NCBI GenBank assembly: GCA_964353175.1
Contig: CAYGUX010000007.1
Location: 12,088 to 76,087, forward strand
Direction: 5' to 3'
Source of the DNA: an uncultured Bdellovibrionales bacterium
GTDB lineage: Bacteria; Bdellovibrionota_C; UBA2361; SZUA-149; DAOLCO01
Length of the DNA stretch: 64,000 bases
The notes under the pieces were generated by a model. The model had not been told where the DNA came from, did not search any database, and was given only the letters and a program-made list of their open reading frames with translations. Positions 9,706 to 59,504 of this stretch are shown in pieces. How positions within the stretch are numbered: the stretch's first letter is position 1; each line of letters opens with the position of its first letter. The translations under genes were made by a program, and so were the position numbers.

Positions 9706-11577
9706 TTAATTTTTAGAAGTATCTACTTCGAATAACTTTCCATCCACAACCTTTTGGATAGTTAAATCCCTATGAATTTCTCCATCACTGAGAACATGCA
9801 TCATGCCAGTAACACCTAAGACTTGTGAGGATTGCTGCAAGCTCTTTGATATCGAAAATGGAGAATTATTAGTAGCTGAAAGTACAAAATTAACACTATC
9901 GTAACTTTGAGCTGAAAGTAGATCCGGATCTCCTCCAAAATTGCGCCTATAATTCTCAATAAATTTCTCTGTACTATCATTGCTGCTAGAGCTATTAAAT
10001 AGACTAACTAAATAGACTCCTTCCATAATGGAGTGGTAACTGGAGATTTTTATAGGGTCTAATAGCAATGACACCCCAAGTATATTTAGGGGAACCATTG
10101 AATCATTATCTTTTATTGCTCGAAGTAAAGGCTCAGCACTCGGCAGAATATCTGCAATAATAACGGTATCAAAGAGGCCTGAATTAAGTTCCGCTTTAAT
10201 ATTCTCAAGTTGAGATAAGTTCCGATTCTGATACTGAAATGATTGAAGTGTTAGATTAATCCCTCTACCTATAATAGTCTGAAACGCATCTTGATACTCG
10301 GCACCCACTTCGCCTTCAGGATACAATAACGCAACTTTGCGTGAATTAAGTTTAGCCTGAGAAAAAGCAATTAATGACTGTAACTGATTTTCAGGTGTTG
10401 CCCCTAGTCGGAATATCTGAGGCGACAGAGCTGGTAGGCCCTGTTTCTTAGCATATGTGAGTAAAGGTACAGTTAATCCACTTTGAAGGCTTGCAAGCGA
10501 CTCTACATCCTTAACAAGCATAGGCCCAAATATTATTTTAGCTTTATCTTGATTAACTAATTTACTGTATGCATCCAAGACTCCCGCATTAGAATCGTAG
10601 ACCACAAGGTTGTCTTCTAAATTATTATCTTTTAAGGCCAAACGAATCCCTTGTTCTACTTTTTTAGCATGGGTTGAATACTGACCACTTAATGGAAGCA
10701 ATGCACCAATTACTTGATTTGCTACTGGAATATCTTCTTGGCTACTTGAAGAATAATCTTCAGGTAGAATTTCCATATTTTGACTATCGTAGTTTGTGCT
10801 AGGAGCTAGTTCATAATTAGATCGACTGAAGTAAGTTGCAATTTTGCTTTTAGATGATAATGATCCTCCCCTTAATCGCCGGCTCTTTTCTTCTCTTAAA
10901 ATAGAAGAGACAAAATTTTCGTTACTCCATTTATCTGACAATGTATTTAATTCGTTGGGTGAAAAAACTTTCGAATACTCTCTGGCAATTCGGCGAGACT
11001 CATCTGAGACTTTTCCTACTCCACGTCCAGATTTAAAACTTTGTACCATCCAAGCATACGCTTGATCAGAATTATCTTTAGCTATGTAAGCATAGGCAGT
11101 TAATAATGAAAATCTAGAATCAAGCTGACTGGCATCTATTCCTCTTTTTGAAGCATACTTAGAAATTCTTGAAAGAGCCCTATCTGGCTTGCCTGACTTT
11201 AAATCAATACTTGATTGAAGAAGCAAGTATGTTTCCGCTTCTTCTGAAGTTTTAGCTTTATTTAAAGCACTTGATAGGGAGTCTGCGGCAGAATCGAGAT
11301 TTCCTTCTTCTTGAAATCTGATAGCATTTAAATAGTCTCTATTTTTATAATTACCTAATGACCATACTTCCCATGGGGCCATTGCTGCTCTAGTCCTTAC
11401 AGCGTCCCTCGGAGTAATGTTTGGGAATTTACCTAAGTTCTGCCTGACAGGGATTGGACGCTTTTGACAGCCAATTGTGAAGACAACGAAAAGTAAGCAT
11501 ATACTAATCGAAAAATTCTTTGACTTTATCCAAAAACGATCTGTTAGTGCTATCGTCCGGGTCTGGTATGCCTTCAA
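9706..11577 (-). CDS. LppC/LpoA-family lipoprotein (N-terminal TPR-like helical domain plus C-terminal periplasmic-binding-protein type I domain). The true start is probably downstream of the listed ATG
   Basis: Lipobox (FTIGC). The C-terminal IGALLPLSG...IIFGPML block resembles LpoA/LivK-type PBP domains. The listed start overlaps the dnaJ 3' end by 74 bp, which suggests the ORF is over-extended. Confidence 0.6.
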
Positions 11578-12613
11578 TTTTTGCTAATTCCTCTAATAAA
11601 TCTTTATGCGCGTCACTTAACTTCTTTGGTACTTTTATGTTAACTTTAACATGCTGGTCACCTCTAATTGTAGATTGTATATCTACAATTCCCTGCCCTT
11701 TAAGCCTAAATACTTTCCCAGCTTGTGTACCTGAGGGAATTTTAAGTTTTACTCTACCATAAAGTGTGGGGACTTCAAGCTCAGTTCCGAGAACAGCCTG
11801 GGAATAAGAAAGAGTTAACTCACTAATTACTTCTGTACCCTGTCTTTTAAAGCGCTTATGCGGTTTAATTAAAATTTCCACATAAAGGTCACCAGGCACT
11901 CCATCGGAAATTACTTCTCCCTCACCCCTTAGTTTTAATTTTTGACCGTTATCTATACCAGCAGGTATCTTAACCAATAACTCACTATCTTTATGACCTT
12001 CACCAGATCCGCCACAGGATGGGCATGGGTCTGCAATCATAGTACCCAAACCTCTACAAACTGGACATGGTCTTGAGATTCTAAAAAAGCCTTCTTGTGA
12101 ATTGACCTGACCCTGCCCCGCACAATGTTTACAGGTTTCTGCTTTAGTCCCTTTACGTGCGCCTGTGCCAGTACATGGATCACATGGCACTGGTCGCCGA
12201 ACATTGATGTTTTTATTTAGACCATTGGCACTCTCTTCGAGAGTAACTTCTAAACGATAAGAAAGATCTCTACCCGTTTTTACTCTCTGCTTTCTTGAAC
12301 CACCACCAAAAAAAGCTCCAAAAATATCTCCGAAAATATCTTCAGAAAACGATCCAAAGTCTCCGAAGCCACCAAACCCTTGCCCGCCTTGGAAAGCGGC
12401 ATGCCCAAATTGATCATATTTTGATCTATTCTCAGCATCGCTTAGGATTTGATATGCTTCGGTAGCTTCTTTAAACTTCTCCTCTGCATCGTGATCATCA
12501 GGGTTCTTATCCGGATGGTACTTAACCGCAAGCTTCCTATAAGCCTTCTTAATCTCTTCTGAAGTACAGGATCTGGTAAGACCCAGAACTTCATAACAAT
12601 CACGTTTGCTCAC
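11504..12613 (-). CDS. dnaJ: Molecular chaperone DnaJ
   Basis: J-domain with HPD (YHPDKN). A G/F-rich linker and four CxxCxGxG zinc-finger repeats are present. Confidence 0.95.
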
Positions 12614-12621
12614 AAAATACC

Positions 12622-14547
12622 CTAATTTACTTCTTCAAAATCTGCATCTACGACATCGTCGCCTGAGTCAGTCTGGGTATTACCAGCATCCGTTCCACCT
12701 GCCGAGTCTGACTCAGTAGTATTAGCACTAGACTCATACATTTTTTTAGTTAGTGCATGAGTTAGTTGCTCCAAACTTTGCTTTTCAGTCTGAAGAGCAG
12801 AAGCAGTCAATCCTTCTTCGAGTACTTTCCTAGCCTTCTCTAAAGCTGCTTCAATTTCTGTTTTTTGCCCAGCTTCAATTTTTTCACCATGCTCAGAAAG
12901 CAACTGTGAAGTAGCATATATAGTTGTATCTAAACCATTTTTAGCTTCTGCTAATTCTCTCTTCTCCTTATCCTGCATGGAATTCGCTTCAGCATCTCTG
13001 ATCATTTGTTCAATTTCTTCTTCACCAAGTCCAGAGCTTGCAGTAATTTGAATTGCCTGTTCCTTACCAGTTCCAAGATCTTTAGCAGATACCTTAACGA
13101 TACCATTGGCATCGATATCAAAAGTAACTTCAACTTGAGGTACACCTCTTGGTGCAGGAGGTATGCCTGTAAGATCAAAACGCCCTAGCGTTTTATTATC
13201 TCCTGACATTTCTCTTTCACCTTGGAGCACATGAATACTTACTGCTGGCTGGTTATCCGAAGCAGTAGAGAATACTTGCTGTTTCCTAGTTGGAATAGTT
13301 GTATTTTTTTCAATTAACTTAGTCATTATTCCACCTTGAGTTTCAATCCCAAGACTTAAAGGAGTAACATCTAACAATAATACATCTTTAACATCACCTT
13401 GAAGAACTCCACCTTGAACCGCCGCACCAATGGCAACTGCTTCATCAGGATTAACGCTCTTACTAGCGGCTTTTCCAAATATTTGTTTAACTCGTTCTTG
13501 AACTGCTGGCATTCTTGTCATACCACCAACCAATATAACTTCTTGAATCTCACCCACTGCTATCCCAGCATCTTTAATCGCTGTTCGGCAAGGAGCCTCA
13601 AGTCTTTGAAGTAAATCAGAACAAAGTTGTTCAAATTTAGATCTAGTCAACTTGATATTTAAATTCTTAGGCCCAGATGAGTCGGATGCAATGAATGGCA
13701 GACTTATTTGAGTTTCTGATGAAGTTGAAAGCTCATGTTTTGCTTCTTCCGATGCAACTTTTAATCGTTGTAATGCTTCAGTGTCTGTCTTTAAATTAAT
13801 ATTGGTTTCTTTTTTAAACTCTTCAACCAACCACTCAACAATTTTATGATCAAAATCTTCACCACCTAGGAAAGTATCACCATTAGTTGCTTTCACTTCG
13901 AAAACACCGTCACCCAATTCTAGAATGGACACGTCAAAAGTACCACCACCTAAATCGAATACAGCAATGGTCTTTTCACCTTTCTTCTCTACACCATAAG
14001 CTAATGCGGCCGCAGTAGGTTCGTTAATGATTCTTAACACCTCAAGTCCAGCAATCCTACCAGCATCTTTAGTTGCTTGTCTTTGAGAGTCGTTAAAATA
14101 TGCAGGAACGGTTATAACAGCTTGAGTAACTTCTTCTCCTAAGTAATCTTCAGCGGTTTGTTTCATCTTCTGAAGGATTAAAGCAGATACTTCTTGAGGA
14201 GATTTCCTCTCTCCGCCCATATTAACTGAGGCATCACCGTTTTCCGCAGCGACCACTTCATACGGAAGAACACCCTTGGCATTTTCGACTTCTTTAGAAC
14301 CAATTTTCCTACCAATCAACCTTTTTACAGCAAAAACAGTATTCTTAGGATTAGTTACTGCCTGTCTTTTGGCGATTTGACCCACCAAACGTTCGCCAGT
14401 CTCAGTTACTGCGACAACGGATGGAGTAGTTCTTTTCCCTTCACTATTTGTAATAACTACTGGATCTCCTCCTTCCATTACAGCTACGCAAGAGTTAGTA
14501 GTACCAAGATCAATTCCGATTATTTTCCCCATTATATTCCCTATCAA
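12622..14547 (-). CDS. dnaK: Molecular chaperone DnaK (Hsp70)
   Basis: Begins [14 protein letters not shown]. The DLGGGTFD motif and full Hsp70 length are present. Confidence 0.97.
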
Positions 14548-33406: not shown

Positions 33407-35623
33407 TTAGCCGACTCTTTTACTTGGATTACTAACTTTGATACACTCCTTAAAACCAGAGGTGTCTTGCCTAACGAGAATAAGGCTAGATGGATAACTA
33501 CCACCTGATCTCTTAGCTCTAAAAGTAGGTCTATTTCCATTGGTATTACCCACAAACTTAAGCGTCTCGAGTACCGTATCTCCAGCTGAGCCACTTTCGA
33601 CCATAGTCGCTGAACCTATTTTACCTGATCTAGATGAGCCAAAAAGCACCACTAACTTGCCATCTCCTTCCGATATTGGTTTCCAAACAAATCCACTTTC
33701 TTGATTCTCGATATTAGATGTCCCATTGCAGGAAATTCTTTGTATCGCATTAGAATCAGTACTTATTGTGCTTTCAGAATTAGTAGTTGTACTTGAGCTA
33801 TTAGAACTCGGAGCGGAACTAATAACCGTCTCCACTAACGGAATATCTCCTGGGACACCAAAAGGCACGCTAATCGCTGGTAGTGGGGCATTCCTAATAA
33901 AGAAGTATCCTTGGCCTGAAATTATGCGCCAAACACCTAATGACTGCTTCAAAATCCCCCGTCTAAATCCAGAAAATGCAAGGTCTCCTTCTAGTCCCCA
34001 TTGAAAAGCAGGATTAACTTTAGATACCTCTCTCGAATAATAGTATTTAAATCCACTGATATCTCTCTCTACAACTGCTTCCACTATCCCATCGCCATTT
34101 AAATCGTATAGATGAGGAATGTCAGATTCTAAGCCATAAAGATAAGGCTCTAAAGCTAATCCATCAGCTGAACGTGACAACCAAAGCAAACCTTGTGGCA
34201 CTGCCCTGACTACAGTAGAATCAGCACGCCCATCTCCATCTACGTCCCCAATCAATATAGTATCATCAGCAAATCCCCAATGATAAGGTTCAATTGCGAT
34301 GTTCCCAGATGCTAAGGGTAACCAAAGTAATAAATTTACTCCGTTCTCGCTTGGTACTGAGCGGACTACAGATAAATCAGTCCGCTTATCCCCATCATAA
34401 TCAGCCGGTACTATCTTGTCTCCACTTAACCCATATTTCAACAAAGTGATCCTTGGAACTGGCGATTGAGCGCCAGACAAATGTAAATACCAACTTAATG
34501 ATCCTGCATCTGATCTAACGCTGCCGAAATCAGCTTTCAAGTCACCATCAAAGTCTGTATTTATATAAGATTCACCCGCAGGCAATATAGGATTTTTAAA
34601 AGTTGTGCTTAATGCACTAGAACGAAGACTAATAAACTCCGCGTTACTCGCTTCACCCCTTCTTCTAACTAGCACCAAGTCAGAAAGAAAGTCACCGTCT
34701 AGGTCACTTTGTATGGGTGCTATATCGCCTAAACCTAAACTTTCGCTAGAAGGTTTAGCGCCTAAACTCCCATAATTAACAGAGGAGGCACTTGCGCCAT
34801 CTTTTATGTACCACATGGCTTCCTTTGGCCGATATAGAATTGGTGTGTATTGGCTCCCGCTTAAAATGGGTGCGCCCATTGCAATATCTCCTGGAAGACC
34901 AAACTGGAAAGAACTAATGGTAGTATCAATTCCCCTAATAAACCATTCTCCAGTTTCAGGCCTAAACAGTCCAAATAAGGATCGACCTAGATCACTTTTA
35001 ACACCATGGATAGGTTGATCACCGAGTAAACCAAAGGAAATTTCTTCTATCTCTGCGGATGAAGTTCTATATATAAATTTCGAACCACCACTAGCCTTAT
35101 CACGTCGATAGACACCAATATTAACTGAACCATCACCATCGACGTCGATTGGATAAGGAATATCTCCGATTGAACCAAACTGGATGGTGTCTGTCACACC
35201 AGTTACTGTGCCGCTAGAGACATAGGCTATATACCAAGTTTGATTGGAAGGTCTGAAAACTGCATAATCAGAATATGAATTCCCGTCATAATCTCCAACG
35301 ACAGGAATATCACCACTTGCCCCCCAATTTTTAGAATTATTGCCTATAGATCGACAATGATGCCAAACTCCAAAGCTGCGATCAAATTCAGTTAAGGTAG
35401 TTTCAATAGTAGAAAAAAAATGGCCATTTTGGGGAACCGTAAACTTTCCACCACAATTTAAACTTTGAGTCCTACCAGCTCCATCTAAGTATGAGGACAC
35501 ACCATTAAGAGATAAAGAGAATCGACCAAGGGAACTAGGATCTAAAAAAGACTCCCCGTATAAATTTGAACATATAAACATGCTCAATAAAGTAAATACT
35601 TTGATCTTCATAAATATGCGCAT
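33407..35623 (-). CDS. Secreted FG-GAP/VCBS-like beta-propeller repeat protein with a distinct ~90-aa C-terminal domain
   Basis: Signal peptide. Several DxDGDxxxDxxVxRxSxxxWY repeats, paralogous to the C-terminus of the 6886..9687 subtilase. The C-terminal FVWKPISEGDGKLVVL block is shared with the 47632..48660 protein. Confidence 0.75.
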   Translation of the reverse strand: MRIFMKIKVFTLLSMFICSNLYGESFLDPSSLGRFSLSLNGVSSYLDGAGRTQSLNCGGKFTVPQNGHFFSTIETTLTEFDRSFGVWHHCRSIGNNSKNWGASGDIPVVGDYDGNSYSDYAVFRPSNQTWYIAYVSSGTVTGVTDTIQFGSIGDIPYPIDVDGDGSVNIGVYRRDKASGGSKFIYRTSSAEIEEISFGLLGDQPIHGVKSDLGRSLFGLFRPETGEWFIRGIDTTISSFQFGLPGDIAMGAPILSGSQYTPILYRPKEAMWYIKDGASASSVNYGSLGAKPSSESLGLGDIAPIQSDLDGDFLSDLVLVRRRGEASNAEFISLRSSALSTTFKNPILPAGESYINTDFDGDLKADFGSVRSDAGSLSWYLHLSGAQSPVPRITLLKYGLSGDKIVPADYDGDKRTDLSVVRSVPSENGVNLLLWLPLASGNIAIEPYHWGFADDTILIGDVDGDGRADSTVVRAVPQGLLWLSRSADGLALEPYLYGLESDIPHLYDLNGDGIVEAVVERDISGFKYYYSREVSKVNPAFQWGLEGDLAFSGFRRGILKQSLGVWRIISGQGYFFIRNAPLPAISVPFGVPGDIPLVETVISSAPSSNSSSTTTNSESTISTDSNAIQRISCNGTSNIENQESGFVWKPISEGDGKLVVLFGSSRSGKIGSATMVESGSAGDTVLETLKFVGNTNGNRPTFRAKRSGGSYPSSLILVRQDTSGFKECIKVSNPSKRVG

Positions 35624-37821: not shown

Positions 37822-38745
37822 CTAGACTGCCTCTGACTCAGAAACAGTTTCAGTCGCCTTTGCTTTAGCACCAGCAGGTTTTGCAGTTTCTGCAGGCTTG
37901 CCTAGTCTCTTAGTGTAAGTATCCTTACCTTCGAGTACAGCATCCGCTACAGCCTGACAAAAAAGTCTTACAGCCCTAGTACCATCATCATTTGATGGAA
38001 TTGGATATTCCACGTTACTTGGGTCACAATTAGTATCAACCAAAGCAACAACAGGTATATCAAGCTTCTGAGCTTCCTTAATGGCGATATCTTCCCTCTT
38101 AGTGTCGATAATAAACATCAAAGAAGGGCTACCGTACATATCTCTAATACCACCCAAAGAAAATTCTAATTTTTCTCTTTCACGAGACATCATTAAACGT
38201 TCTTTCTTTTTAAACTTAGTTGGTCTTCCAGTTCTAAGATTTTCCTCTTCTTCTTTTAAAATCTGTTCGACTTTGTTCATTCTTTCAATACTCTTACGAA
38301 TAGTTTGAAAGTTAGTCATCATTCCACCAAGCCATCTTTTAGCTACATAGTAAGCTCCACAACGTCTAGCTTCTTCGACGATTGCATCTTGAGCTTGCTT
38401 TTTGGTGCCAACGAACAAAACTGAACCGCCTCTTGCTGCCACATCAACGATTGCTTGACGAGCTTGCTCCCAACATTCAATAGTCTTTGGTAGATTTACT
38501 ACGTGAATGCCATTTCTTACACCATAGATATACTTAGCCATCGCTGGATTCCAGCGAGAAGTTTGGTGTCCAAAATGAACCCCTGCTTCAAGTAATGTTC
38601 TTAATGAAATTTCTACGGGATCTCTAGGCGTGATATCGCTATGCGCCGCCCCTGGCTTAGTTGCCACTTTAGTATCCGTTACAGCACTTATTCCACTTTT
38701 TTGCTCTGTTCTAACAGAGTCTGTTTGCTCTTGACTTGCTTCCAC
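37822..38745 (-). CDS. rpsB: 30S ribosomal protein S2, with ~40-aa N-terminal and ~30-aa C-terminal extensions
   Basis: Core LLEAGVHFGHQTSRWNP. The rpsB-tsf synteny is present. Confidence 0.95.
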   Translation of the reverse strand: MEASQEQTDSVRTEQKSGISAVTDTKVATKPGAAHSDITPRDPVEISLRTLLEAGVHFGHQTSRWNPAMAKYIYGVRNGIHVVNLPKTIECWEQARQAIVDVAARGGSVLFVGTKKQAQDAIVEEARRCGAYYVAKRWLGGMMTNFQTIRKSIERMNKVEQILKEEEENLRTGRPTKFKKKERLMMSREREKLEFSLGGIRDMYGSPSLMFIIDTKREDIAIKEAQKLDIPVVALVDTNCDPSNVEYPIPSNDDGTRAVRLFCQAVADAVLEGKDTYTKRLGKPAETAKPAGAKAKATETVSESEAV

Positions 38746-39254
38746 CTTAAATTCTCCTAAAAAATACAGTATCTTGGTTGTTTCTAGGCCTTTGGATATT
38801 TAAGAAATTAATCTTAAACATAGTAAGTAAAGATTCTAACAGATATTAATACCTATTATACTAATTTACGCACCAAGATGAGCCAAAGACCACGATTATT
38901 TGGCGAGTTCCTAACATAACTAATCACCTAATTCAAGCGGAACCGCCTCCATATATCTAAAATCATATTGAAGTTATGTAGCCCCCGATTATATCAGAAG
39001 CGTAGACATAAGCGAAATTTAAGATAGCGTGTAATTATAGCCTGTTAGATCTCCCCGAAAGACCCAGTTACTAGAGTAAATCGGTATGTTTCTAAAACTA
39101 CATTAGCATATACGCTCCATTCTTTAAAAAAAAACGATGATAGTACTATGTCTGTTTTGAATGTCACACCTTCTATTAGGTTTAATTATACACAAAGCTA
39201 TTAATAGAAATAAGAGTAGACACTAATCATATACAATTTAAAGGTATATTAGTT

Positions 39255-39878
39255 ATGAATTCAGTTTTAGAGCCCAAAATTTACGGAAAGAAAATAATTG
39301 ATCAAATTATCTTCAGTTATCAATTAATTGACAGCGCGAAAGAAGAAGCAACAACCATTTTATCTGAGGCTAAACTCAGGGCAGAGAAAATAGTGCAATC
39401 AGGATTCCAAAGCGGACTGTTAAGTGGTTGTCAGGTAGTTTATCAAAAACTTTGTAATTCAAGCAATCTCTATGAAGATAATGCTATTAAACTAGAAACT
39501 ACAATTTTTAGAATTTGCAATAAGATACTCACAGAAATACTTGTAGATGAAAGCCTAAAATCTAGTCTAAGCCTTCTACAAGAAAGAATAAAAATTGAGA
39601 TTATTGCCCTAACTAATCAACTTGATTCCAAGGATACTAAAATAATACTAGAAGTTTGTGCTTTTACCTCTAAGGAAGAGATCGAATCTATCGAACAAGA
39701 GATTAAACATATTACAGTCAAGATAAATTCAGAACTAAAACCAGGTACATTTAAACTAATAACTAAGTATGGAGAAATCGAATCCAATCCATTAATATAT
39801 GTAACAGATCTACTAGTACATTTGAAAACTAAAGGTATCTTAAAAGATCTATCAGAAGAGATTCTCATCAATGGATAA
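39255..39878 (+). CDS. FliH/YscL-like ATPase-regulator protein (putative)
   Basis: The ~200-aa helical protein overlaps the downstream FliI-like ATPase by 8 bp. The EEA..IL.EA...AE.I...G.Q.G region resembles the FliH N-terminal region. The similarity is weak, so the call is based mainly on context. Confidence 0.45.
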   Translation: MNSVLEPKIYGKKIIDQIIFSYQLIDSAKEEATTILSEAKLRAEKIVQSGFQSGLLSGCQVVYQKLCNSSNLYEDNAIKLETTIFRICNKILTEILVDESLKSSLSLLQERIKIEIIALTNQLDSKDTKIILEVCAFTSKEEIESIEQEIKHITVKINSELKPGTFKLITKYGEIESNPLIYVTDLLVHLKTKGILKDLSEEILING

Positions 39879-41187
39879 CCTAAGTCTCAGTATCAAAGAC
39901 TATAAAAAGAATAAGGTTATTGGCAAGGTAACTTCTTCATCAGGAGCCATCATTACAGCAGAATTGCCTACGGTAGGCATAGGAGATATCGTCACAATTG
40001 AATTACCTACAGGCCCGGTAAAAGCAGAGGTATTAAGTTTTAAAGATTATAAGGTCAATCTAGCTCCCTATTCACTAATAAGGGGTCTGGTACCTGGAGC
40101 TAAAGTTACTAGTAATTCATTTACAGAAGACATTTTCTTAAGAAATAATATCGTTGGAAGCCTCACTGATGCAAGTGGCAATGTTATCATCCCCGCCCGA
40201 GCAACTTCTAGTATAGATCTCGTTGGAAGTTATCCAATTAACATAAATAAATCTCATCTCATTCATACTGAAACAATTCAGGAACCCTTGTGGACTGGAA
40301 TTCCGAGTATTGATACTTTTACTACGATAGGTAAGGGGCAAAAACTTATGCTTCTAGCTGAACCAGGTTTAGGAAAGTCGTCTCTACTCACTTCTCTCTG
40401 TAAACATATACAAGTTGACTTAATTGTCATAGCACTTATCGGCGAACGCACTAGAGAGGTCATTGAGTTCCATCAAAATTTAATTAAAAATGACGGTGAC
40501 AAAAGAACTATTGTAGTAAGTGCGACAAGTGACTCATCTCCTTTAGTAAAGAAACAAGCAGCCTTAACTTCAATTCGCATCGCTGAAATTGCTAAAGAAA
40601 AAGGCTTAGATGTTTTTCTCGGCTTTGACTCACTTACTAGATATATTCGATCTATAAGAGACATAGGACTAGCCGCCGAACAGCTACCAATTCGAAGAGG
40701 CTATCCTGCTAGTGTGTTTGAAGAGATGCCGAGATACATTGAGCGAGCTGGGAATTTCAAGACTGGATCAATCACAGCCCTTTATACGATGTTGAGCGCC
40801 GGCGATCTAGATGAAGACCCACTAATAGAGGAAATAAAAGGGCTCACAGATGGTCATATTATCCTAAGTAAGAATCTAGCAGAACAGGGCATTTTCCCCG
40901 CTATCGATATAGTTAAATCATTATCTAGAGTAGCAGATCGCTTTTTTACTATCGAAGACCAACAGATAATACGAGCAATTAAAAACAAGTATAAGAGCCT
41001 AAATGAGAATAAACAACTTTTAATATTAGGAGGGGCTGAAAAAAAAGTAGAAGATAATAAAATATTATTAGAGAAGTTCTACAACATCCTACAAGATCGA
41101 CTTGTTAATATTAAGGAGGTCTCCATGCGGACTAAACTCCTACAGGAGCTACTCTCCTGCTTAAATGACCCAAATATAAGAGCCTAA
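39871..41187 (+). CDS. Flagellar/type III secretion-type ATPase (FliI/YscN/InvC family, F1-ATPase alpha/beta-like)
   Basis: Walker A (AEPGLGKSSLL). Signature blocks LIGERTREV, SLTRY, GYPASVF, ITALYTMLSAGDLDEDP, DGHIILSKNLAEQGIFPAIDI and SLSR closely match FliI/YscN as recalled. Confidence 0.85.
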   Translation: MDNLSLSIKDYKKNKVIGKVTSSSGAIITAELPTVGIGDIVTIELPTGPVKAEVLSFKDYKVNLAPYSLIRGLVPGAKVTSNSFTEDIFLRNNIVGSLTDASGNVIIPARATSSIDLVGSYPININKSHLIHTETIQEPLWTGIPSIDTFTTIGKGQKLMLLAEPGLGKSSLLTSLCKHIQVDLIVIALIGERTREVIEFHQNLIKNDGDKRTIVVSATSDSSPLVKKQAALTSIRIAEIAKEKGLDVFLGFDSLTRYIRSIRDIGLAAEQLPIRRGYPASVFEEMPRYIERAGNFKTGSITALYTMLSAGDLDEDPLIEEIKGLTDGHIILSKNLAEQGIFPAIDIVKSLSRVADRFFTIEDQQIIRAIKNKYKSLNENKQLLILGGAEKKVEDNKILLEKFYNILQDRLVNIKEVSMRTKLLQELLSCLNDPNIRA

Positions 41188-41293
41188 TTTTACTGAGAAA
41201 ACTTAGTATAGCCCTGAAGTATTAAGAACTTCTCCTATTCGGTCGATTTTAGACTAAGAAAATTTCCTAACTCAAATTAGAGGCAACATAATA

Positions 41294-41839
41294 ATGAATA
41301 AAGTCTGCTGTAAAGGCTTTACCTTAATAGAAATAATGGTAGCAATTGCAATTTTCGCAATTGTAATTACCACTGCAACAAGCTCAATCAATAGTTACCA
41401 AAAATTAAATCATGGTGGCGAAATTAGGTCAGAAGCAAGTCAAGCAGCACAATCAATAATAGATCAGATTCGAGGTATTGATGTTAAGTCTTTGCCAACA
41501 AGCGGAGACGGTACACCAGTGGAAATCACAATGAATTCGAATAGAATGTACTCTGTAGAAACTATATATTGTACTAACTCAAGTATTTGCAACTCACCAA
41601 GCGTGCGGCAAATAGCGGTTGAAGTATATCATAGAGATGCCCTTGCTTATACCACAGAAGTAATTTTTACGGATTTTGGAGCCGCTCCAGGAAGCAATTA
41701 CTCTGCGACACCAACACCTGTGTTTACACCGACACCAGCTCCCTCAACCAGCGTGACTCCTACAGCAACTACATCCTATACACCAACACCTACGCCTACA
41801 CCCAAAAAAAAGAAAAAATGTAAAACGTGGAAATGCTAA
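41294..41839 (+). CDS. Type IV pilus minor pilin, PilV-like, with a Thr/Pro-rich C-terminal tail ending KKKKKCKTWKC
   Basis: Class III (prepilin) signal KGFTLIEIMVAIAIF with Glu at position +5 of the mature protein (E+5). The following SQAAQSIIDQIR region resembles PilV. Confidence 0.75.
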   Translation: MNKVCCKGFTLIEIMVAIAIFAIVITTATSSINSYQKLNHGGEIRSEASQAAQSIIDQIRGIDVKSLPTSGDGTPVEITMNSNRMYSVETIYCTNSSICNSPSVRQIAVEVYHRDALAYTTEVIFTDFGAAPGSNYSATPTPVFTPTPAPSTSVTPTATTSYTPTPTPTPKKKKKCKTWKC

Positions 41840-41840
41840 G

Positions 41841-42281
41841 ATGATAAATTCTAAACAAGCAGGTTTTAGCATTTTAGAACTACTAGCAGTACTTGTCATA
41901 ATGGGAATATTGTCCGCTAGTGCGATGAGCAATTTAAAAGAAATTAATAGGCCATTAACAAATGCTTCATTTGAAATTACTCATTTTTTACGCCTTGCAC
42001 GAGCTAGAGGAATCTCGCAGACTAGTTTTATAAAAGTAGCACCTGCCTCCGCCTTTAAAATCTCTACCCACTCAGGCGACTCTTGCGCAACTGCTACAAG
42101 CGCAATAAATGATTTATCACTTAATCTTCCAGATAATACAAATCTTCTCGCAACAGATTGGGAGATATGTTTTACACCAAGGGGACTAGCACCTAACTCT
42201 ACCGCATTCACCATTAGAGATGAACATGCATCCACACGAACAGTAGAGATTGCCTTAGGCGGTGGAGTTAGAATGCAATGA
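41841..42281 (+). CDS. Type IV pilus / T2SS minor (pseudo)pilin, FimT/GspH-like
   Basis: Prepilin signal AGFSILELLAVLVIMGILSA. The length and the ARARGISQ region resemble the GspH/FimT family. Confidence 0.7.
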   Translation: MINSKQAGFSILELLAVLVIMGILSASAMSNLKEINRPLTNASFEITHFLRLARARGISQTSFIKVAPASAFKISTHSGDSCATATSAINDLSLNLPDNTNLLATDWEICFTPRGLAPNSTAFTIRDEHASTRTVEIALGGGVRMQ

Positions 42282-43165
42282 CTGAAAACAACCCACTTAA
42301 TCGTCGTGGTTTTACTTTAATTGAGTTAATGGTCTCAATCTTACTACTTAGTTTAACTTTAATGATGCTGGTAGGATACGTTGTTGGTTTACAGAATGCA
42401 TTCTTTAACGACGTTGTAAGAACTAGAATTAATAGTAATCTACGCACTGCCTTGGATATTTTAGCAATGAATATTCGGCAGTCAGGTGAGAACCTAGGAG
42501 GTGCTTTTCCGGCAATGGTATTAGAGGACGATGGCGATGGAACGGGCAAACATATAGTTCTAAGACGAAATCTAATTTCTGAAGTTTTAACCATTTGTGA
42601 ATCCCTGAGTTCAGGAGACTCTACCGTACTTATCTCAACGACCAGCAATCCTACTCCAGCTTGCGTATTTTCAAATGTCAATAATATGTACAATACTTTT
42701 AGATCAGAGAGGACAAAGGAAGGCGGTGAAATAAGGTTATTCCTATATAACTCTACCGCAAAGTCTGGCGAATACGTTGATTATACCAACGAAGGGACTA
42801 CTTCAGGCAAATACAGCCTAAACATATCTTCTCCAACAGCTAACTACCCTGCAAATACTTCGTACATTTACTATATAGAAGAATATGACTTCTCACTAGA
42901 GGAGGCTACTAGCACACTTAATCTTACTCGGGATGGGGAAGATGATCTTACTGAACCTGTTGCATTTTCCATAACTGCGTTTGACATCGAATTACATATG
43001 AAAGATGGATCTATTCTAAATACTCTTCTGCCAAACACTGGCCCAACATGGAAGGATTTACAATATATCGCTATAGAATTAGAAGGGAGCGAAAATAGAA
43101 AGTCACAAGTATATTCAACTTCTGTGAGCGGAAATTACTATCCAAGAAATATTTTGTCTCGGTAA
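42278..43165 (+). CDS. Type IV pilus assembly minor pilin, PilW-like
   Basis: Prepilin signal RRGFTLIELMVSILLL. The downstream LRTALDILAMNIRQSGEN region matches the PilW pattern. It overlaps the previous gene by 4 bp. Confidence 0.7.
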   Translation: MTENNPLNRRGFTLIELMVSILLLSLTLMMLVGYVVGLQNAFFNDVVRTRINSNLRTALDILAMNIRQSGENLGGAFPAMVLEDDGDGTGKHIVLRRNLISEVLTICESLSSGDSTVLISTTSNPTPACVFSNVNNMYNTFRSERTKEGGEIRLFLYNSTAKSGEYVDYTNEGTTSGKYSLNISSPTANYPANTSYIYYIEEYDFSLEEATSTLNLTRDGEDDLTEPVAFSITAFDIELHMKDGSILNTLLPNTGPTWKDLQYIAIELEGSENRKSQVYSTSVSGNYYPRNILSR

Positions 43166-43169
43166 TCAT

Positions 43170-45062
43170 ATGAATAAAAATGAAGATGGTTTTGCATTAT
43201 TAGCAGTACTACTATTGGTCACAGTACTCCTCGCACTATTTAGTACCTACATGGTTGTGACTAAAACTGAACTAGGAATAGTAAAAACATCTCGTGATAG
43301 TGCAAGTGGATTTAATGCTGCAGAATCGGGATTAAACCTTAGAGCGGAAGAAGTAAAAAACATATTTCTTGACTATGACAAGCCAGACGGAACTTCCCCT
43401 ACTTCCATAGAAGATTGTGACTCAGGCTCAACGGGTGAAGGAGATTATGAATGTAAATCCTATACCTTTGAAAATAAACATACTGCAGTTACCTATGTCG
43501 ATGAGGAAGCTAACAATCCCATCACTACAATAATTCCACCTGGAGAGCCTTTTGCTGGGCTGAACACTCAAGAATATAGATATACTGTACGCTCGGTTGG
43601 ACGAAATAATCAAATGAGCAATGAAGCTATATTAGATTTAACTTTTAAAAGTAGGTTAGTACCGCTATTTCAGTTCGCAATTTTTTTCCAGGATGATCTT
43701 GAGTTTTTTAATGGAGCAACCTTAACCGTTACTGGCCCTGTACATACGAATGGCAATCTCTACCTCGCGCCGCAAGATGGAGGTACCACAAATATAGATG
43801 GTCAAACTACTATAGCTGGTACTTTTTTTAGAGGTCAGAAGTCTCAATCAAGTTGTTCAGGATATCAAGGTACGGCTAGAGCAAAAAACCCAACATCATA
43901 CACCACCTTGCCCGCTTGTTCATCCAGCAGAACAGCAGTAACTAATGTTTCTGCATGGAATGGAAACATAGAGCTAGGTGTTGAACCTGTCACCGTTCCT
44001 TCCCCAGAGGATTTCGCTCCCTTTGGTGGGGGTGAATTTTGGGATAGAGCAGACCTACGTTTAGTTTTACGTTTAAATGCTGCAGGCAATCCTAACACCT
44101 CCATATCATCAACAGGTATTGAAGTAGTAAATGTTGATGGTAGTAGCGATACCGTCTCTACGGGGTACTTACATTCTAGTGCGAATTGTGGTGGATTAGT
44201 AAGAACTGGTGCTGGCCCCTTACTTTCAATAGGAACCCAAGGCCCCGGAACATCGGGGAGCCAGCTTAGATTGTTCAGAGAATACCAATCTAATAGCACA
44301 ATTAATAGCTATCAAAGAACACTCGAAGTTGATATGCGAGCGCTACTAAACTGTATAAAAAAATATCCAGAGATTATGGGCGGTAGATTATTAAATGATG
44401 ATACTGAAGATGGATTAGTATTTCACTTAACTATAGATGGCCCGTTGAGTGGGGCTAGCCAGAATAATTATAGCGTTAGAGTTAGAAATGCCTCCACTCT
44501 TCAATCCAATCTGGGTGGCGCTCCAACGGTAAAAGGACTAACTTTGGTTACAGACCACGGTTTGGTTGTATGGGGAAATTACAATTCAGTCGTAGCAAGT
44601 TGGATTCCTTCGGCTCTAATGGCTGATACCCTCTGGCTATTATCAAATAGCTGGACTGACAGCGATAGCAATATTTCGGCAGTATATGATAGAGATGGGT
44701 CAGCTACTACTGTTAGAGCAGCCGTGATAAGTGGCATAAGACGAACTGGGAATGCAAATGGTGCAGCAGGAGAAGATCACGGAGTGGACACCAACGGTGG
44801 TGGTGCGATTAACGTGTTTAGATTTAATGAATGGTTTAGAGTAGGAACAGTAATCCCTGACTTTACCTACGAAGGGTCAATAGTAAGTCTCGGCGCGCCT
44901 TTAAAAAGTCAATCTACCTGGGGACCTTTTACGTATTATAGTGCTCCCAATAGAGTCTGGTCTTATGATACGAGATTCAATGATGCAGATTTACTACCTC
45001 CGATGACACCAGTTTTTGTTTACTTGCAACAAGAACTTTTTGTAAGAGATTATGAACTTTAA
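43170..45062 (+). CDS. PilX_N-domain protein (PilX/GspK-like pseudopilin lacking Glu at mature-protein position +5) with an unusually large ~560-aa C-terminal extension
   Basis: N-terminus GFALLAVLLLVTVLLALFSTYMVV...AAESGLNL matches the PilX N-terminal domain. It is the last gene of the pilin operon. Confidence 0.7.
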   Translation: MNKNEDGFALLAVLLLVTVLLALFSTYMVVTKTELGIVKTSRDSASGFNAAESGLNLRAEEVKNIFLDYDKPDGTSPTSIEDCDSGSTGEGDYECKSYTFENKHTAVTYVDEEANNPITTIIPPGEPFAGLNTQEYRYTVRSVGRNNQMSNEAILDLTFKSRLVPLFQFAIFFQDDLEFFNGATLTVTGPVHTNGNLYLAPQDGGTTNIDGQTTIAGTFFRGQKSQSSCSGYQGTARAKNPTSYTTLPACSSSRTAVTNVSAWNGNIELGVEPVTVPSPEDFAPFGGGEFWDRADLRLVLRLNAAGNPNTSISSTGIEVVNVDGSSDTVSTGYLHSSANCGGLVRTGAGPLLSIGTQGPGTSGSQLRLFREYQSNSTINSYQRTLEVDMRALLNCIKKYPEIMGGRLLNDDTEDGLVFHLTIDGPLSGASQNNYSVRVRNASTLQSNLGGAPTVKGLTLVTDHGLVVWGNYNSVVASWIPSALMADTLWLLSNSWTDSDSNISAVYDRDGSATTVRAAVISGIRRTGNANGAAGEDHGVDTNGGGAINVFRFNEWFRVGTVIPDFTYEGSIVSLGAPLKSQSTWGPFTYYSAPNRVWSYDTRFNDADLLPPMTPVFVYLQQELFVRDYEL

Positions 45063-45715
45063 GGACTTAATCTCTCTTTAGTCCAGAACTCACCCTCTAG
45101 AGAATATCTAATACGATCATGAAGGCGGCCTACTCTACCTTGCCAGAACTCTAATGAGACCAAATTGATTTGGTATCCACCCCAATGAGCAGGTCGATCA
45201 ATCTCTTGATCTTGAAATGCTTCTTGAAACTTTCTATAATTCATTTCTAGAGTAGCTCTATTAGAAACAACCTCCGACTGCCTAGAAGCATATACCGCAA
45301 TTTGAGCATCTCTCTTACGTTGTGCGAAATAAGAGTTGCTTTCAGCATAATGAAGCTTTCTTACAACTCCTTCAAAGCGCACCTGTCTTTCCAGTTCTCC
45401 CCAGTAAAAAACACCAGAGCAATGCGGATTACTTAACAACTCCTTACCCTTTCTACTCTCATAATTGGTAAAAAATGTGAGCCCTAAATCATCTAAGTTC
45501 TTCATAAGTACAAAACGCACAGATGGTAGATTATTCATGCAAGTTGCTAATGCAAACGCATTAGGCTCAACACCACCAGCTCTTACAATCTCACCATACC
45601 ACTCATTGAACAAGTCTATAGGATTACCTTGAAGAGTATTCTCATCTAGAACTCCAACTTGATATTCTTTTCTTTGATTTTGGAATCTGTCACGATTTGG
45701 CATAGGCTCACGCAT
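45059..45715 (-). CDS. pdxH: Pyridoxamine 5'-phosphate oxidase
   Basis: 218 aa. The RFVLMK...FFTNY.S.KG..L..NP and C-terminal WGGY motifs are present. Confidence 0.9.
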   Translation of the reverse strand: MREPMPNRDRFQNQRKEYQVGVLDENTLQGNPIDLFNEWYGEIVRAGGVEPNAFALATCMNNLPSVRFVLMKNLDDLGLTFFTNYESRKGKELLSNPHCSGVFYWGELERQVRFEGVVRKLHYAESNSYFAQRKRDAQIAVYASRQSEVVSNRATLEMNYRKFQEAFQDQEIDRPAHWGGYQINLVSLEFWQGRVGRLHDRIRYSLEGEFWTKERLSP

Positions 45716-46418: not shown

Positions 46419-46868
46419 CTATGGTGCATCTGATTTAGAGTAAGGAAGGACCGATGGTACCGGTACAGGAGTTGGAGTAGCTTCCTTAACTTCTTGAATT
46501 TCCTTTAAAATTCTATTCTTCTCTGAAATTGTTCTTCTTCTTATCTTCTCAGCTTCTTGTTTTTCCTTTTTGGCGGAATTTAAACTTGCTATGGACGAAT
46601 TTTTTTGAGCTATAATAGAAGCTTCAATTGCCCTCACTTCCTTTAATACTTCCCTACTTTCAGACAACTGGGTCTCAGACTTTTTTAACAACTGATAAGA
46701 TTGAGCCAACATGTTTTTTACTGAGGAATCACTATCCTTAAATACTTGAACATCAGGAGTATCATCAGGCAATGCAGGCGCACAACTTGACGTTGTCATA
46801 CCAATTATACATATTATAAATAATATTCTACTAGTCATACGATTCCTAAAAAATTGAGGTTCTTCCAA
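46419..46868 (-). CDS. Hypothetical coiled-coil (lipo)protein
   Basis: N-terminal hydrophobic segment with Cys, followed by Lys/Glu-rich coiled coil. Confidence 0.4.
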   Translation of the reverse strand: MEEPQFFRNRMTSRILFIICIIGMTTSSCAPALPDDTPDVQVFKDSDSSVKNMLAQSYQLLKKSETQLSESREVLKEVRAIEASIIAQKNSSIASLNSAKKEKQEAEKIRRRTISEKNRILKEIQEVKEATPTPVPVPSVLPYSKSDAP

Positions 46869-58694: not shown

Positions 58695-59504
58695 GTGACT
58701 TCGAGTTTAGAAGAACATTATCTAAACATACTCGGTAACCCGGAAGAGGGTAATCTTCCGGAACTTGAAAAAAAGTTTAAAAGACTCTCTGCTGAGTATC
58801 TAATAACAAAGACTGCTGATCGAGTTGACATCTCGATGATCCAAAGGTCTGGGGAACTAACCAGTGCTTATCTATACTTGAAATCAAAATGGGAAAAACA
58901 AACTAGAAGTTCTCCATTCGTCCCAAAAATTCTTCGGATTGAACACCCTGAGCAGCCTCCCTTAACATTTCTAGAAAAGTTGCATAAAGAACTATATGGA
59001 TTGGCAATGGCTGGTTTATTCTTTGTTGCAATATTAAGTTTATATCAACTAGGTGTCTCACTATTAGATAATTCCTTTGCTAGCGCTTTCTCTGGTGTAG
59101 GCAAACAAAATATGATTACTGAATATATAAATAGCGAGACAACAATAAACGCGATTAAGAGCCAAAACTCAGCCGTGGCCCTGAGAAAGAATCGCGAAAC
59201 TTTTTTAAAAAAAATAGATTCTAAACAAGCTCTACCGATCCAAATCGCCGCTAAATCATGTGACTTACAGGGAATAAAATCACTAATTAGCAATCAAGCC
59301 AATTTGAATTCTTTAGATGAACTAGGTGCAACTCCTCTACATTGGACATCCCGAATAAATTGCATAAGTTGTTCTCAAGCCTTAATTGCCGCAAATGCCA
59401 GCATAAATATTAAAGACTATTCTGGAAAAACCGCTTTAGACTGGGCCAAGTTAAGCAATAATCACGAAAGCATACGTCTGCTTGAAAAGTTTGGTGCCCA
59501 ATAG
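58695..59504 (+). CDS. Ankyrin-repeat protein with a central transmembrane segment (GTG start as listed)
   Basis: The C-terminal half has at least 3 ankyrin repeats (G.TPLH......aa..Li..GA..N). There is one hydrophobic helix. Confidence 0.7.
   Translation: MTSSLEEHYLNILGNPEEGNLPELEKKFKRLSAEYLITKTADRVDISMIQRSGELTSAYLYLKSKWEKQTRSSPFVPKILRIEHPEQPPLTFLEKLHKELYGLAMAGLFFVAILSLYQLGVSLLDNSFASAFSGVGKQNMITEYINSETTINAIKSQNSAVALRKNRETFLKKIDSKQALPIQIAAKSCDLQGIKSLISNQANLNSLDELGATPLHWTSRINCISCSQALIAANASINIKDYSGKTALDWAKLSNNHESIRLLEKFGAQ

Follow-up and report, generated by a model that had tools for sequence, protein, structure and literature searches.

A conserved fliH-fliI gene pair of a distinct type III secretion-class ATPase subfamily and its non-conserved minor-pilin neighbours

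We analysed a stretch of 64,000 nucleotides from a contig (CAYGUX010000007.1) of an uncultured Bdellovibrionales bacterium, referred to as the window throughout, in which a fliH-like gene and a fliI-like ATPase gene are followed on the same strand by four pilin-like genes. An initial annotation had proposed that this ATPase pair, orphaned from any flagellum or injectisome, is coupled to the pilus components downstream. The six open reading frames (ORFs) on which that proposal was built are all present in the ORF listing at the coordinates given below, and the fliH-like and ATPase genes do overlap by 8 bp (ATGGATAA). The pair and the pilin genes do lie on one strand with a short gap between them, and the length of that gap is 106 nt, not 107 bp as first counted. 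The features are:

39255..39878, plus strand: divergent FliH/SctL-family protein, 207 aa (found with a profile of Pfam-matching orthologues)
39871..41187, plus strand: ATPase of the type III secretion system (T3SS) class, FliI/SctN-like, 438 aa (Pfam ATP-synt_ab, NCBIfam and PDB scores)
41188..41293, plus strand: spacer between fliI and the pilin genes, 106 nt (ORF coordinates)
41294..41839, plus strand: putative prepilin-type minor (pseudo)pilin, PilV/GspI-like, 181 aa (Pfam N_methyl, E 2e-9)
41841..42281, plus strand: putative prepilin-type minor (pseudo)pilin, FimT/FimU/GspH-like, 146 aa (N_methyl, E 5e-7)
42278..43165, plus strand: putative prepilin-type minor (pseudo)pilin, PilW/GspJ-like by size and position, 295 aa (N_methyl, E 2e-7)
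43170..45062, plus strand: large PilX/GspK-like protein, 630 aa (sub-threshold PilX_N, hydrophobic prepilin-like N-terminus)

The conserved unit in this region is the fliH-fliI pair, not the pair together with the pilins. A homologue search returned about ten proteins at 45-61% ATPase identity, followed by a continuum at 42% or less; the homologues at 45-61% all come from metagenomes or metagenome-assembled genomes, and two of them are named 'Oligoflexia bacterium'. Gene context was read at 13 related loci, 12 from the homologue search and one (L016) from a metagenome scan. At every one of them, over 39-61% ATPase identity, fliH lies directly upstream of the ATPase gene, and pilin genes adjoin the pair in 3/13, the adjacency being confined to the window, L001/L002 and L012. 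The arrangements, with ATPase identity to the window, are:

Window, L001/L002 and L012 (60-61%): fliH-fliI, four pilin genes, pdxH-trmB
L003, L004, L005/L006, L007/L008, L013 and L014 (45-51%): fliH-fliI kept, without pilin genes
P0013 locus (41%): fliH-fliI linked to rpsB
L011, L015 (42%) and L016 (39%), together 39-42%: murJ, then fliH-fliI

The three pilin-positive loci are syntenic on both sides (ispH/FG-GAP/uvrC and pdxH/trmB), with L001 sharing the upstream order uvrC / FG-GAP / ispH ... tsf-rpsB of the window, and the pilin adjacency therefore needs no functional or selective explanation. In L003-L008 and L014 the pair is divergent from rpsB-tsf-pyrH-frr-uppS-cdsA-dxr-rseP-tsaB, while the upstream genes of L013 differ; the arrangement of rpsB next to fliH-fliI recurs in L001, L003, L004, L005, L007, L014 and the P0013 locus. 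Downstream genes at the ten pilin-free loci are unrelated and mostly convergent, comprising a convergent der-era-rnc block in L004, L013 and L014, and apbA, a PEP-CTERM gene, an ArfB-like gene or a JAB-domain gene elsewhere. The ArfB-like gene (RF-1 domain, peptidyl-tRNA hydrolase type, 132 aa) starts 4 nt after fliI on the same strand in L007 (11301-11699) and L008 (2197-2595). Where pilins are present, the spacer between the two units measures 106-184 nt, and genes inside each unit overlap or nearly touch. Functional coupling of the ATPase pair to the pilins is thus not supported, as 10/13 related loci keep the pair without pilin genes in the sequence read around it, and the FliI-FliH-pilin order, whose conservation in relatives had been proposed as a check, is confined to one syntenic sub-branch (3/13 loci). 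The two units seem to be neighbours by a local chance of gene order, and not as parts of a new pilus motor.

The 438-aa protein matches Pfam ATP-synt_ab (PF00006) with E 1e-63. When it was scored against PDB chains, Salmonella FliI reached 224 bits, the best T3SS ATPase (SctN) 219 bits and F1-beta about 106 bits, with the EscN, Spa47 and SsaN structures at 190-207 bits. The top NCBIfam matches are likewise all FliI/SctN models: the FliI clade models give 349 (clade 1: 349.2 against a cut-off of 619), 315 and 315 bits and the SctN equivalog 336.7 bits against 605, and V-/F-type subunits give 95-131 bits, the best being V-type B with 131 and F1-alpha with 130 bits. The equivalog cut-offs of these models are 587-630 bits for the FliI clades and 605 bits for SctN. 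On these scores, the protein is classified as a T3SS-class ATPase and not as an F/V-type one, in agreement with the FliI/YscN-family assignment of the initial annotation, and neither the profile nor the PDB scores point to ATP synthase beta. In alignments to FliI and 118 homologues, the Walker A Lys (LAEPGLGKS), the catalytic Glu (IGERTREV, where IGERGREV is usual) and the Walker B Asp (FDSLTR) are kept, and the Arg of SLSR aligns with R374 of Salmonella FliI. These four residues do not vary in an alignment of 25 sequences from the subfamily described below. Because the catalytic residues are kept in both the window protein and its subfamily, it may reasonably be inferred that the ATPase is active.

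In comparisons with 93 ordinary FliI/SctN homologues, the window clade and its wider relatives share the P-loop AEPGxGKS (AEPGLGKS in the window protein), where the ordinary enzymes have AGSGVGKS. Further motifs of the clade are P-V/I-R-R-G-Y-P, instead of P-P-a-t-k-G-Y-P, and DEDP-x-V-E-E-x-K-G-L-T-DGH. A profile search of 1.84 billion representatives (50% identity clusters) was read for its best 150 matches, 6 of which were already in our set; at least 34 of the 144 new best-scoring representatives carry the AEP P-loop, and several more have AEA, AQP or GEP. In neighbour-joining (NJ) trees with F1 alpha and beta of L009 as outgroup, the window clade is monophyletic in 97/100 bootstraps and the subfamily (37 sequences) in 89/100. 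Rooted with these real F1 subunits, the subfamily nests inside FliI/SctN diversity, and named SctN sequences form a separate clade; a position basal to FliI + SctN, which came from a first NJ tree rooted with an E. coli AtpD sequence, was accordingly given up. P0053, with an AGPG P-loop and grouping with an SctN-like sequence, was dropped as a member. Across 25 subfamily sequences, 46 alignment columns are invariant, all catalytic residues among them.

The best subfamily scores, as estimated from E-values, are about 465 bits for FliI clade 1 and about 485 bits for SctN, and some members score best on the SctN model of NCBIfam. Some more distant members pass the cut-off of the NCBIfam FliI/YscN model TIGR01026 (best E 6e-135). 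One member, P0134 (705 aa, P-loop AEPGVGKS), is a FliH-FliI fusion whose N-terminus matches the subfamily FliH profile with E 5e-7. Polypeptides of 630-705 aa in which a FliH-like N-terminal region is fused to a T3SS-class ATPase were seen in P0134, P0224, P0241, P0159 and P0229. A scan of species-representative genomes with the ATPase returned an F1 ATPase locus and a Pelagibacter fragment only, and no close relative. Taken together, the sequences suggest a vertically inherited subfamily from uncultured Oligoflexia/Bdellovibrionota-type bacteria. In the literature that was searched, which did not extend to subscription journals, neither this subfamily nor the occurrence of isolated fliH-fliI pairs in Oligoflexia/Bdellovibrionota was found to be described.

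The partner protein is much more divergent. The 207-aa protein has no Pfam match even at E up to 5, and reaches 20.8 bits (E 3e-4) on the SctL model TIGR02499, the cut-off of which is 78.7. Same-position genes of 11 related loci align with it over the full length; Pfam FliH (PF02108) matches 7 of these 11 positional orthologues (best E 3.6e-14), and a profile built from the 7 finds the window protein, again over its full length, with 65 bits and E 3e-17 (set for a nominal 100,000 sequences), while matching zero other window ORFs. Since the orthologues match Pfam FliH and their profile finds it, the 207-aa protein is accepted as a divergent FliH, and the FliH-like partner of the initial annotation is upheld. 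A C-terminal G-x-I-E motif is conserved among the positional orthologues and present in the window protein, and several FliH orthologues begin with an N-L/I-x-I-K-like motif resembling ordinary FliH N-termini. The FliH/SctL fold consists of a long N-terminal coiled coil followed by a globular C-terminal domain; an AlphaFold2 (AF2) model of the window protein, from a 4-sequence alignment and with a mean pLDDT of only 52.7, places a helix at 6-68 and an alpha/beta domain at 130-192, a layout that would fit but is of low confidence. A FliH-family alignment profile did not find FliH or SctL among PDB sequences, and a word-indexed homologue search with the FliH alignment returned the input proteins and one weak match only. 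The WxxW FliN-binding motif, considered as a test of C-ring docking, is missing in the subfamily FliH proteins and in 27/27 control FliH proteins alike, and is not diagnostic. The 207-aa protein is presumed to be a stator or regulator that binds the ATPase N-terminus.

Three of the four downstream proteins carry canonical prepilin signals (KG|FTLIE, AG|FSILE and RG|FTLIE; N_methyl E 2e-9 to 5e-7). The first has the leader MNKVCCKG|FTLIE and weak, sub-cut-off NCBIfam matches to ComGE, GspI and PilV (PilV: 23.8 bits, cut-off 52.2). The second scores 20.0 bits on GspH (PF12019), just under the cut-off of 21, which its L012 orthologue passes at 24.1 bits, and the third shows weak matches to HpsC and other pseudopilins at its N-terminus only. 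The 630-aa protein begins MNKNEDG|FALLAVLLL, a prepilin-like N-terminus without Glu5, as in PilX/GspK; the full 51-position PilX_N model matches it and its L001 and L012 orthologues with E 0.006-0.017, below the gathering score (window protein: 17.0 bits, threshold 25.5). No window pilin exceeds the cut-off of the specific minor-pilin families GspH, PilV, PilW and PilX_N, and matches to families other than GspH, PilV and PilX_N are confined to the N-terminus. The first and second genes are 1 nt apart, the second and third overlap by 4 nt, and the third and fourth are 4 nt apart. The four tightly overlapping prepilin-signal genes of the initial annotation therefore hold for the three canonical signals, and are to be qualified in that the large protein has no Glu5 and matches PilX_N below threshold, and in that the genes are joined by two gaps and one overlap. 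We predict that the four genes encode the H/I/J/K-like (FimU/PilV/PilW/PilX-like) minor (pseudo)pilins of a type IV filament; this may be a type IVa pilus, a type II secretion system (T2SS), or a Com-like or Hps-like filament.

Compared with the FimU-PilV-PilW-PilX set of type IV pili and the GspH-I-J-K set of T2SS, the window set agrees in having four consecutive packed genes, three with canonical signals, a weak GspH domain in the second gene and a large fourth protein without Glu5. It differs in that the specific models stay below their cut-offs, that no pilY1, pilE or major pilin gene is adjacent, and that the fourth protein is unusually large (630 aa), with a long C-terminal part to which no family was assigned. 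This protein is probably a tip or adhesin subunit. A weak Pfam Endotoxin_C match covers residues ~396-447 and recurs at the same place in the L001 and L012 orthologues, with E-values of 0.004, 0.09 and 0.0007 in the three proteins. Endotoxin_C is domain III of delta-endotoxins, a beta-sandwich, and at the tip of the filament the stretch resembling it may serve as a binding domain of lectin-like type. The C-terminal 50 residues of the first pilin comprise a Thr/Pro-rich linker and then PKKKKKCKTWKC, ending in KKKKKCKTWKC; the stretch has the look of a spacer of mucin-like or glycosylated type that carries a basic tip with Cys. Orthologues of the first pilin are longer (246 and 299 aa), and the C-terminal tail is thus variable.

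The region is bounded on both sides by genes on the opposite strand:

37822..38745, minus strand: rpsB (ribosomal protein S2), divergent from fliH (Pfam Ribosomal_S2, E 7e-92)
38746..39254, no strand: intergenic region rpsB/fliH, 509 nt
45059..45715, minus strand: pdxH (pyridoxamine 5'-phosphate oxidase; Pfam PNPOx_N + PNP_phzG_C)

Alongside rpsB lies tsf, also on the strand opposite to the six genes, and pdxH, convergent to the pilin genes, closes the pilin unit, as it does at the same place in L001 and L012; trmB stands beside pdxH, convergent to the six-gene region. Within the rpsB/fliH region, about 150 nt upstream of rpsB (38746-38900, minus strand) are conserved in the window, L001, L003, L004, L005, L007 and L014. 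This leader has AGGAATAACCAAGAT just ahead of the Shine-Dalgarno sequence and contains the complementary segments ATCTTGGT/ACCAAGAT, and rpsB starts with GTG. On the minus strand it folds better than shuffled sequence (z = -2.35), has no Rfam match and gave no consensus structure from the 7-sequence alignment. It is probably an S2 autoregulatory leader, and the remaining intergenic sequence presumably holds the fliH promoter. A CGA[AT]AA motif (GGCGATAA, GTCGATAA and AGCGATAA are examples) occurs 28-65 nt 5' of fliH in L001, L004, L005, L007, L012, L013 and L014, and at 70 nt in L016; at the aligned position the window has AATAGAAA, and the motif is missing. CGA[AT]AA resembles the -10 of sigma-28 (FliA) promoters, with poor spacing to a TAAA -35.

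The spacer between the two units also has an element of its own. A stretch of about 50 nt just upstream of the first pilin gene is conserved in the window, L001 and L012 (TATTAAGAA...CGAT..TT....TAAGAA.TTT.C.TAA), at ~41222-41275, ~11350-11410 and ~2270-2325, respectively. That the spacer holds this conserved element suggests that the pilin genes have their own control region, and the element may be regarded as a candidate for the promoter or operator of these genes.

A Pfam scan of the window, applied to likely genes of at least 100 aa with ORFs nested in longer ones skipped, detected no further gene for a flagellum, an injectisome or the type IV pilus machinery in the 64 kb, and local profiles for FliG, FliJ and FlgE had no match in the window. 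The statement of the initial annotation that no export-gate or other flagellar or injectisome gene is nearby therefore holds within the window. A 149-aa ORF at 46419-46868 was considered as FliJ and rejected, being lipoprotein-like with a coiled coil. The identifiable window genes are housekeeping or unrelated genes, dnaK/dnaJ/grpE, uvrB, uvrC, serS, pyrG, ispH and lipA among others; no tRNA genes were found in the window, nor any Rfam matches. The window also encodes an ankyrin-repeat protein (58695-59504), a subtilase fused to FG-GAP repeats (6886-9687) and an FG-GAP protein of 738 aa (33407-35623). Ankyrin and FG-GAP type proteins are frequent in host- or prey-associated bacteria, and these proteins are consistent with an Oligoflexia-like lifestyle, without being proof of it.

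The controls are 27 loci of a metagenome scan in which the subfamily alignment was the query and 79 of the best 80 loci are canonical by P-loop. When the two ORFs flanking the ATPase gene to either side were scanned, FliH was found in 26 of these 27 ordinary FliI loci, FliG in 24, FliJ in 21 and a YscO-like gene in 12. A FliJ profile built from the 21 control loci had no match in the window or in L001-L016, and the locus listings hold no FliJ/YscO Pfam match. The local isolation of the fliH-fliI pair is real and conserved, as the initial annotation had stated for the window.

The best-scoring solved structures are those of the Salmonella flagellar complex (FliH2-FliI, PDB 5B0O and 2DPY; 224 bits over residues 16-391), which the window pair resembles in the order fliH then fliI with overlapping stop and start codons, in the conserved Walker A, catalytic Glu, Walker B and R374-equivalent Arg, and in a short N-terminal segment before the beta-barrel domain, where FliH binds in FliI. 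It differs from flagellar FliI in being only ~35-38% identical, in scoring 349 against an equivalog cut-off of 619 bits, in the P-loop (AEPGLGKS, not AGSGVGKS), in having no T3SS_ATPase_C match and in the absence of fliJ, fliG and fliF nearby, and from flagellar FliH in a divergence so large that orthologue-built profiles alone recognise it. Similarity to the injectisome SctN-SctL pair (EscN, Spa47, InvC / YscL) is nearly equal (219 bits), and the only direct match of the FliH-like protein is SctL (TIGR02499, E 3e-4); against this, the SctN score is below its cut-off, sctV, sctC, sctJ, sctQ or other injectisome genes occur at none of the loci, and named SctN sequences form a clade of their own in the tree.

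We consider it about an even call that the pair is a flagellar-type export ATPase with gate partners encoded elsewhere. The region would then be two independent units that are neighbours in one sub-lineage only. Unit 1 would be a self-contained, translationally coupled fliH-fliI operon; by homology with Salmonella FliH2-FliI (PDB 5B0O; review PMC7911332), we infer that a FliH dimer would bind the N-terminal segment of the ATPase and tether it, that the ATPase would form a hexamer and hydrolyse ATP, and that the complex would dock on a flagellar-type type III export gate, the flagellar genes being dispersed and those of the gate lying elsewhere. Unit 2 would be an ordinary minor-(pseudo)pilin set that primes or tips a type IV filament, with the PilB/GspE-type ATPase of that filament encoded elsewhere. 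Two observations favour a flagellar partner. The first comes from L016, a locus that came up independently of our choice of relatives. Its ATPase reaches 529 bits on the subfamily profile (canonical ATPases: 496 or less), and 83-84/100 bootstraps place it within the subfamily beside P0015, P0030 and P0018. In L016, murJ is followed by fliH-fliI and then by a convergent flgE that abuts the ATPase gene (8320-9576, minus strand; FlgE_D2, Flg_bbr_C and Flg_bb_rod all significant). Two PilT-like T2SSE ATPases are encoded 2 kb beyond flgE (10453-11664 and 11677-12750, both minus strand). With a solitary flgE adjoining fliH-fliI, the L016 organism clearly has flagellar genes, which appear to be dispersed as singletons. 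The second observation is the N-L/I-x-I-K-like start of several FliH orthologues, which resembles the N-termini of ordinary FliH. The subfamily lineage may scatter its flagellar genes, and a flagellum whose genes are spread out is a serious explanation and probably the foremost one. Bdellovibrionota and Silvanigrellales relatives are reported to be flagellated (PMC12827227, PMC12321486). A number of observations nevertheless weigh against this explanation. Neither fliG nor fliJ is adjacent at any of 12 subfamily loci (Fisher p = 1e-7 and 5e-6 against the 27 controls), and in flagellated Bdellovibrio and Bacteriovorax fliH-fliI sits inside the usual flgB-fliE-fliF-fliG-fliH-fliI-fliJ cluster (PMC12827227). 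The window ATPase, with 349.9 bits, does not reach the TIGR01026 cut-off of 379.5, none of 25 subfamily members examined reaches the FliI or SctN equivalog cut-off, and one member is labelled 'hypothetical protein' by the NCBI pipeline. The C-terminal domain of FliI is the region that binds FliJ and chaperones; its Pfam signature T3SS_ATPase_C (PF18269), found in P0013-P0017 and nearly all canonical homologues, has no match in the window ATPase or its 9 closest relatives, despite a C-terminal region of normal length. For at least one genome of a sponge-associated Oligoflexia bacterium, flagellar genes are reported to be missing and twitching genes to be retained (PMC7313196). As to the independence of the two units, no terminator-like hairpin was predicted between fliI and the pilin genes (spacer fold z = -0.96), and read-through co-transcription of pair and pilins may for this reason occur. 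Much of this would be expected of a stand-alone or co-opted module, which we hold to be possible but the less probable account: the flagellum would have been lost or be served by a separate canonical FliI, and the pair would be an autonomous cytoplasmic ATPase complex with a non-T3SS partner or none, for which an unfoldase, a chaperone-release factor or an energiser or regulator of another envelope machine can be imagined. In its favour are also the housekeeping context of the pair at 13/13 loci, the absence of FliJ and FliG, unlike at ordinary loci, a monophyletic subfamily with its own P-loop and motifs, and the existence of FliH-FliI fusions. Chlamydia keeps FliI, FlhA and FliF without a flagellum, and these proteins interact with the complete injectisome that it also has (PMC2830194); the window pair is a candidate for similar retention outside a flagellar cluster, with the difference that its locus has no gate gene. 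Lysobacter enzymogenes OH11, the second precedent for a flagellar export ATPase kept without flagella, retains flhA/flhB/fliPQR, and FliH and FliJ homologues were not detected in its genome (PMC7277350, PMC7688988). Both precedents thus keep export-gate genes, which tells against a stand-alone pair, as do the facts that the one known function of FliH is to hold the ATPase at the sorting platform or gate of a T3SS, that a subfamily member adjoins flgE in L016, and that no alternative partner gene is conserved beside the pair. We regard as unlikely the wider proposal that the AEPGxGKS subfamily is a free-standing FliH-FliI machine without an export gate, a soluble or differently docked rotary-type ATPase with a new task in non-flagellated Oligoflexia-like bacteria, possibly type IV filament control, and that the pilin adjacency in the window reflects this task.

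That the pair energises or controls type IV filament assembly, replacing or acting beside a PilB/GspE ATPase, as the initial annotation suggested, seems to us very unlikely. Strand, the 106-nt gap and the lack of a predicted terminator would suit it, and so would the persistence of the arrangement in three lineages whose ATPases are only ~60% identical. The only published precedent for a FliI-pilus link that we found in the literature searched is that of non-flagellated Lysobacter enzymogenes OH11, which needs its FliI homologue for PilA secretion and twitching (PMC7277350); that link is genetic and not one of gene adjacency, whereas the window locus has FliH and an adjacency that is not conserved. 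A looser precedent is the needle-less T3SS* basal body of Myxococcus, which acts with the Kil Tad-type pilus in prey killing (PMC12075869). The three positive loci, however, share general synteny on both sides, most related loci keep the pair with no pilin gene nearby, and the spacer has its own conserved element between units whose genes overlap or abut; moreover, the pilins make up a complete set of ordinary kind even when the ATPase pair is left aside, and how an F1-like hexamer could act on a PilC/PilM platform has no known structural basis. It is slightly less probable again that the pair is a decaying, non-functional remnant of a lost flagellar cluster. Divergent sequence with sub-threshold family scores, a window FliH that Pfam does not recognise and the deviation of IGERTREV from IGERGREV are what a relic might show, but both ORFs are intact and translationally coupled, the 46 columns invariant across 25 subfamily sequences include the catalytic residues, and the pair is kept at the same chromosomal position in lineages down to 41% identity.

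To our knowledge, FliH and FliI are known solely from flagella and injectisomes, whose cytoplasmic ATPase complex they make up, and they form an evolutionary bridge to the F/V-type rotary ATPases. What appears to be new here is a bare FliH-FliI pair of its own clade, homologous to the known FliH-FliI/SctL-SctN complexes and falling outside the curated FliI/SctN definitions. The idea of a FliI-driven pilus is unsupported whether or not the host genomes turn out to have an export gate. If they have one, the pair would represent an extreme dispersal of flagellar genes together with a gap in annotation models, of which the 'hypothetical protein' label is a sign. If they have none, a T3SS-derived ATPase that stands alone would have been found, and this would be of a new kind. 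The subfamily is hence a good test case for the life of a FliH-FliI complex outside type III secretion.

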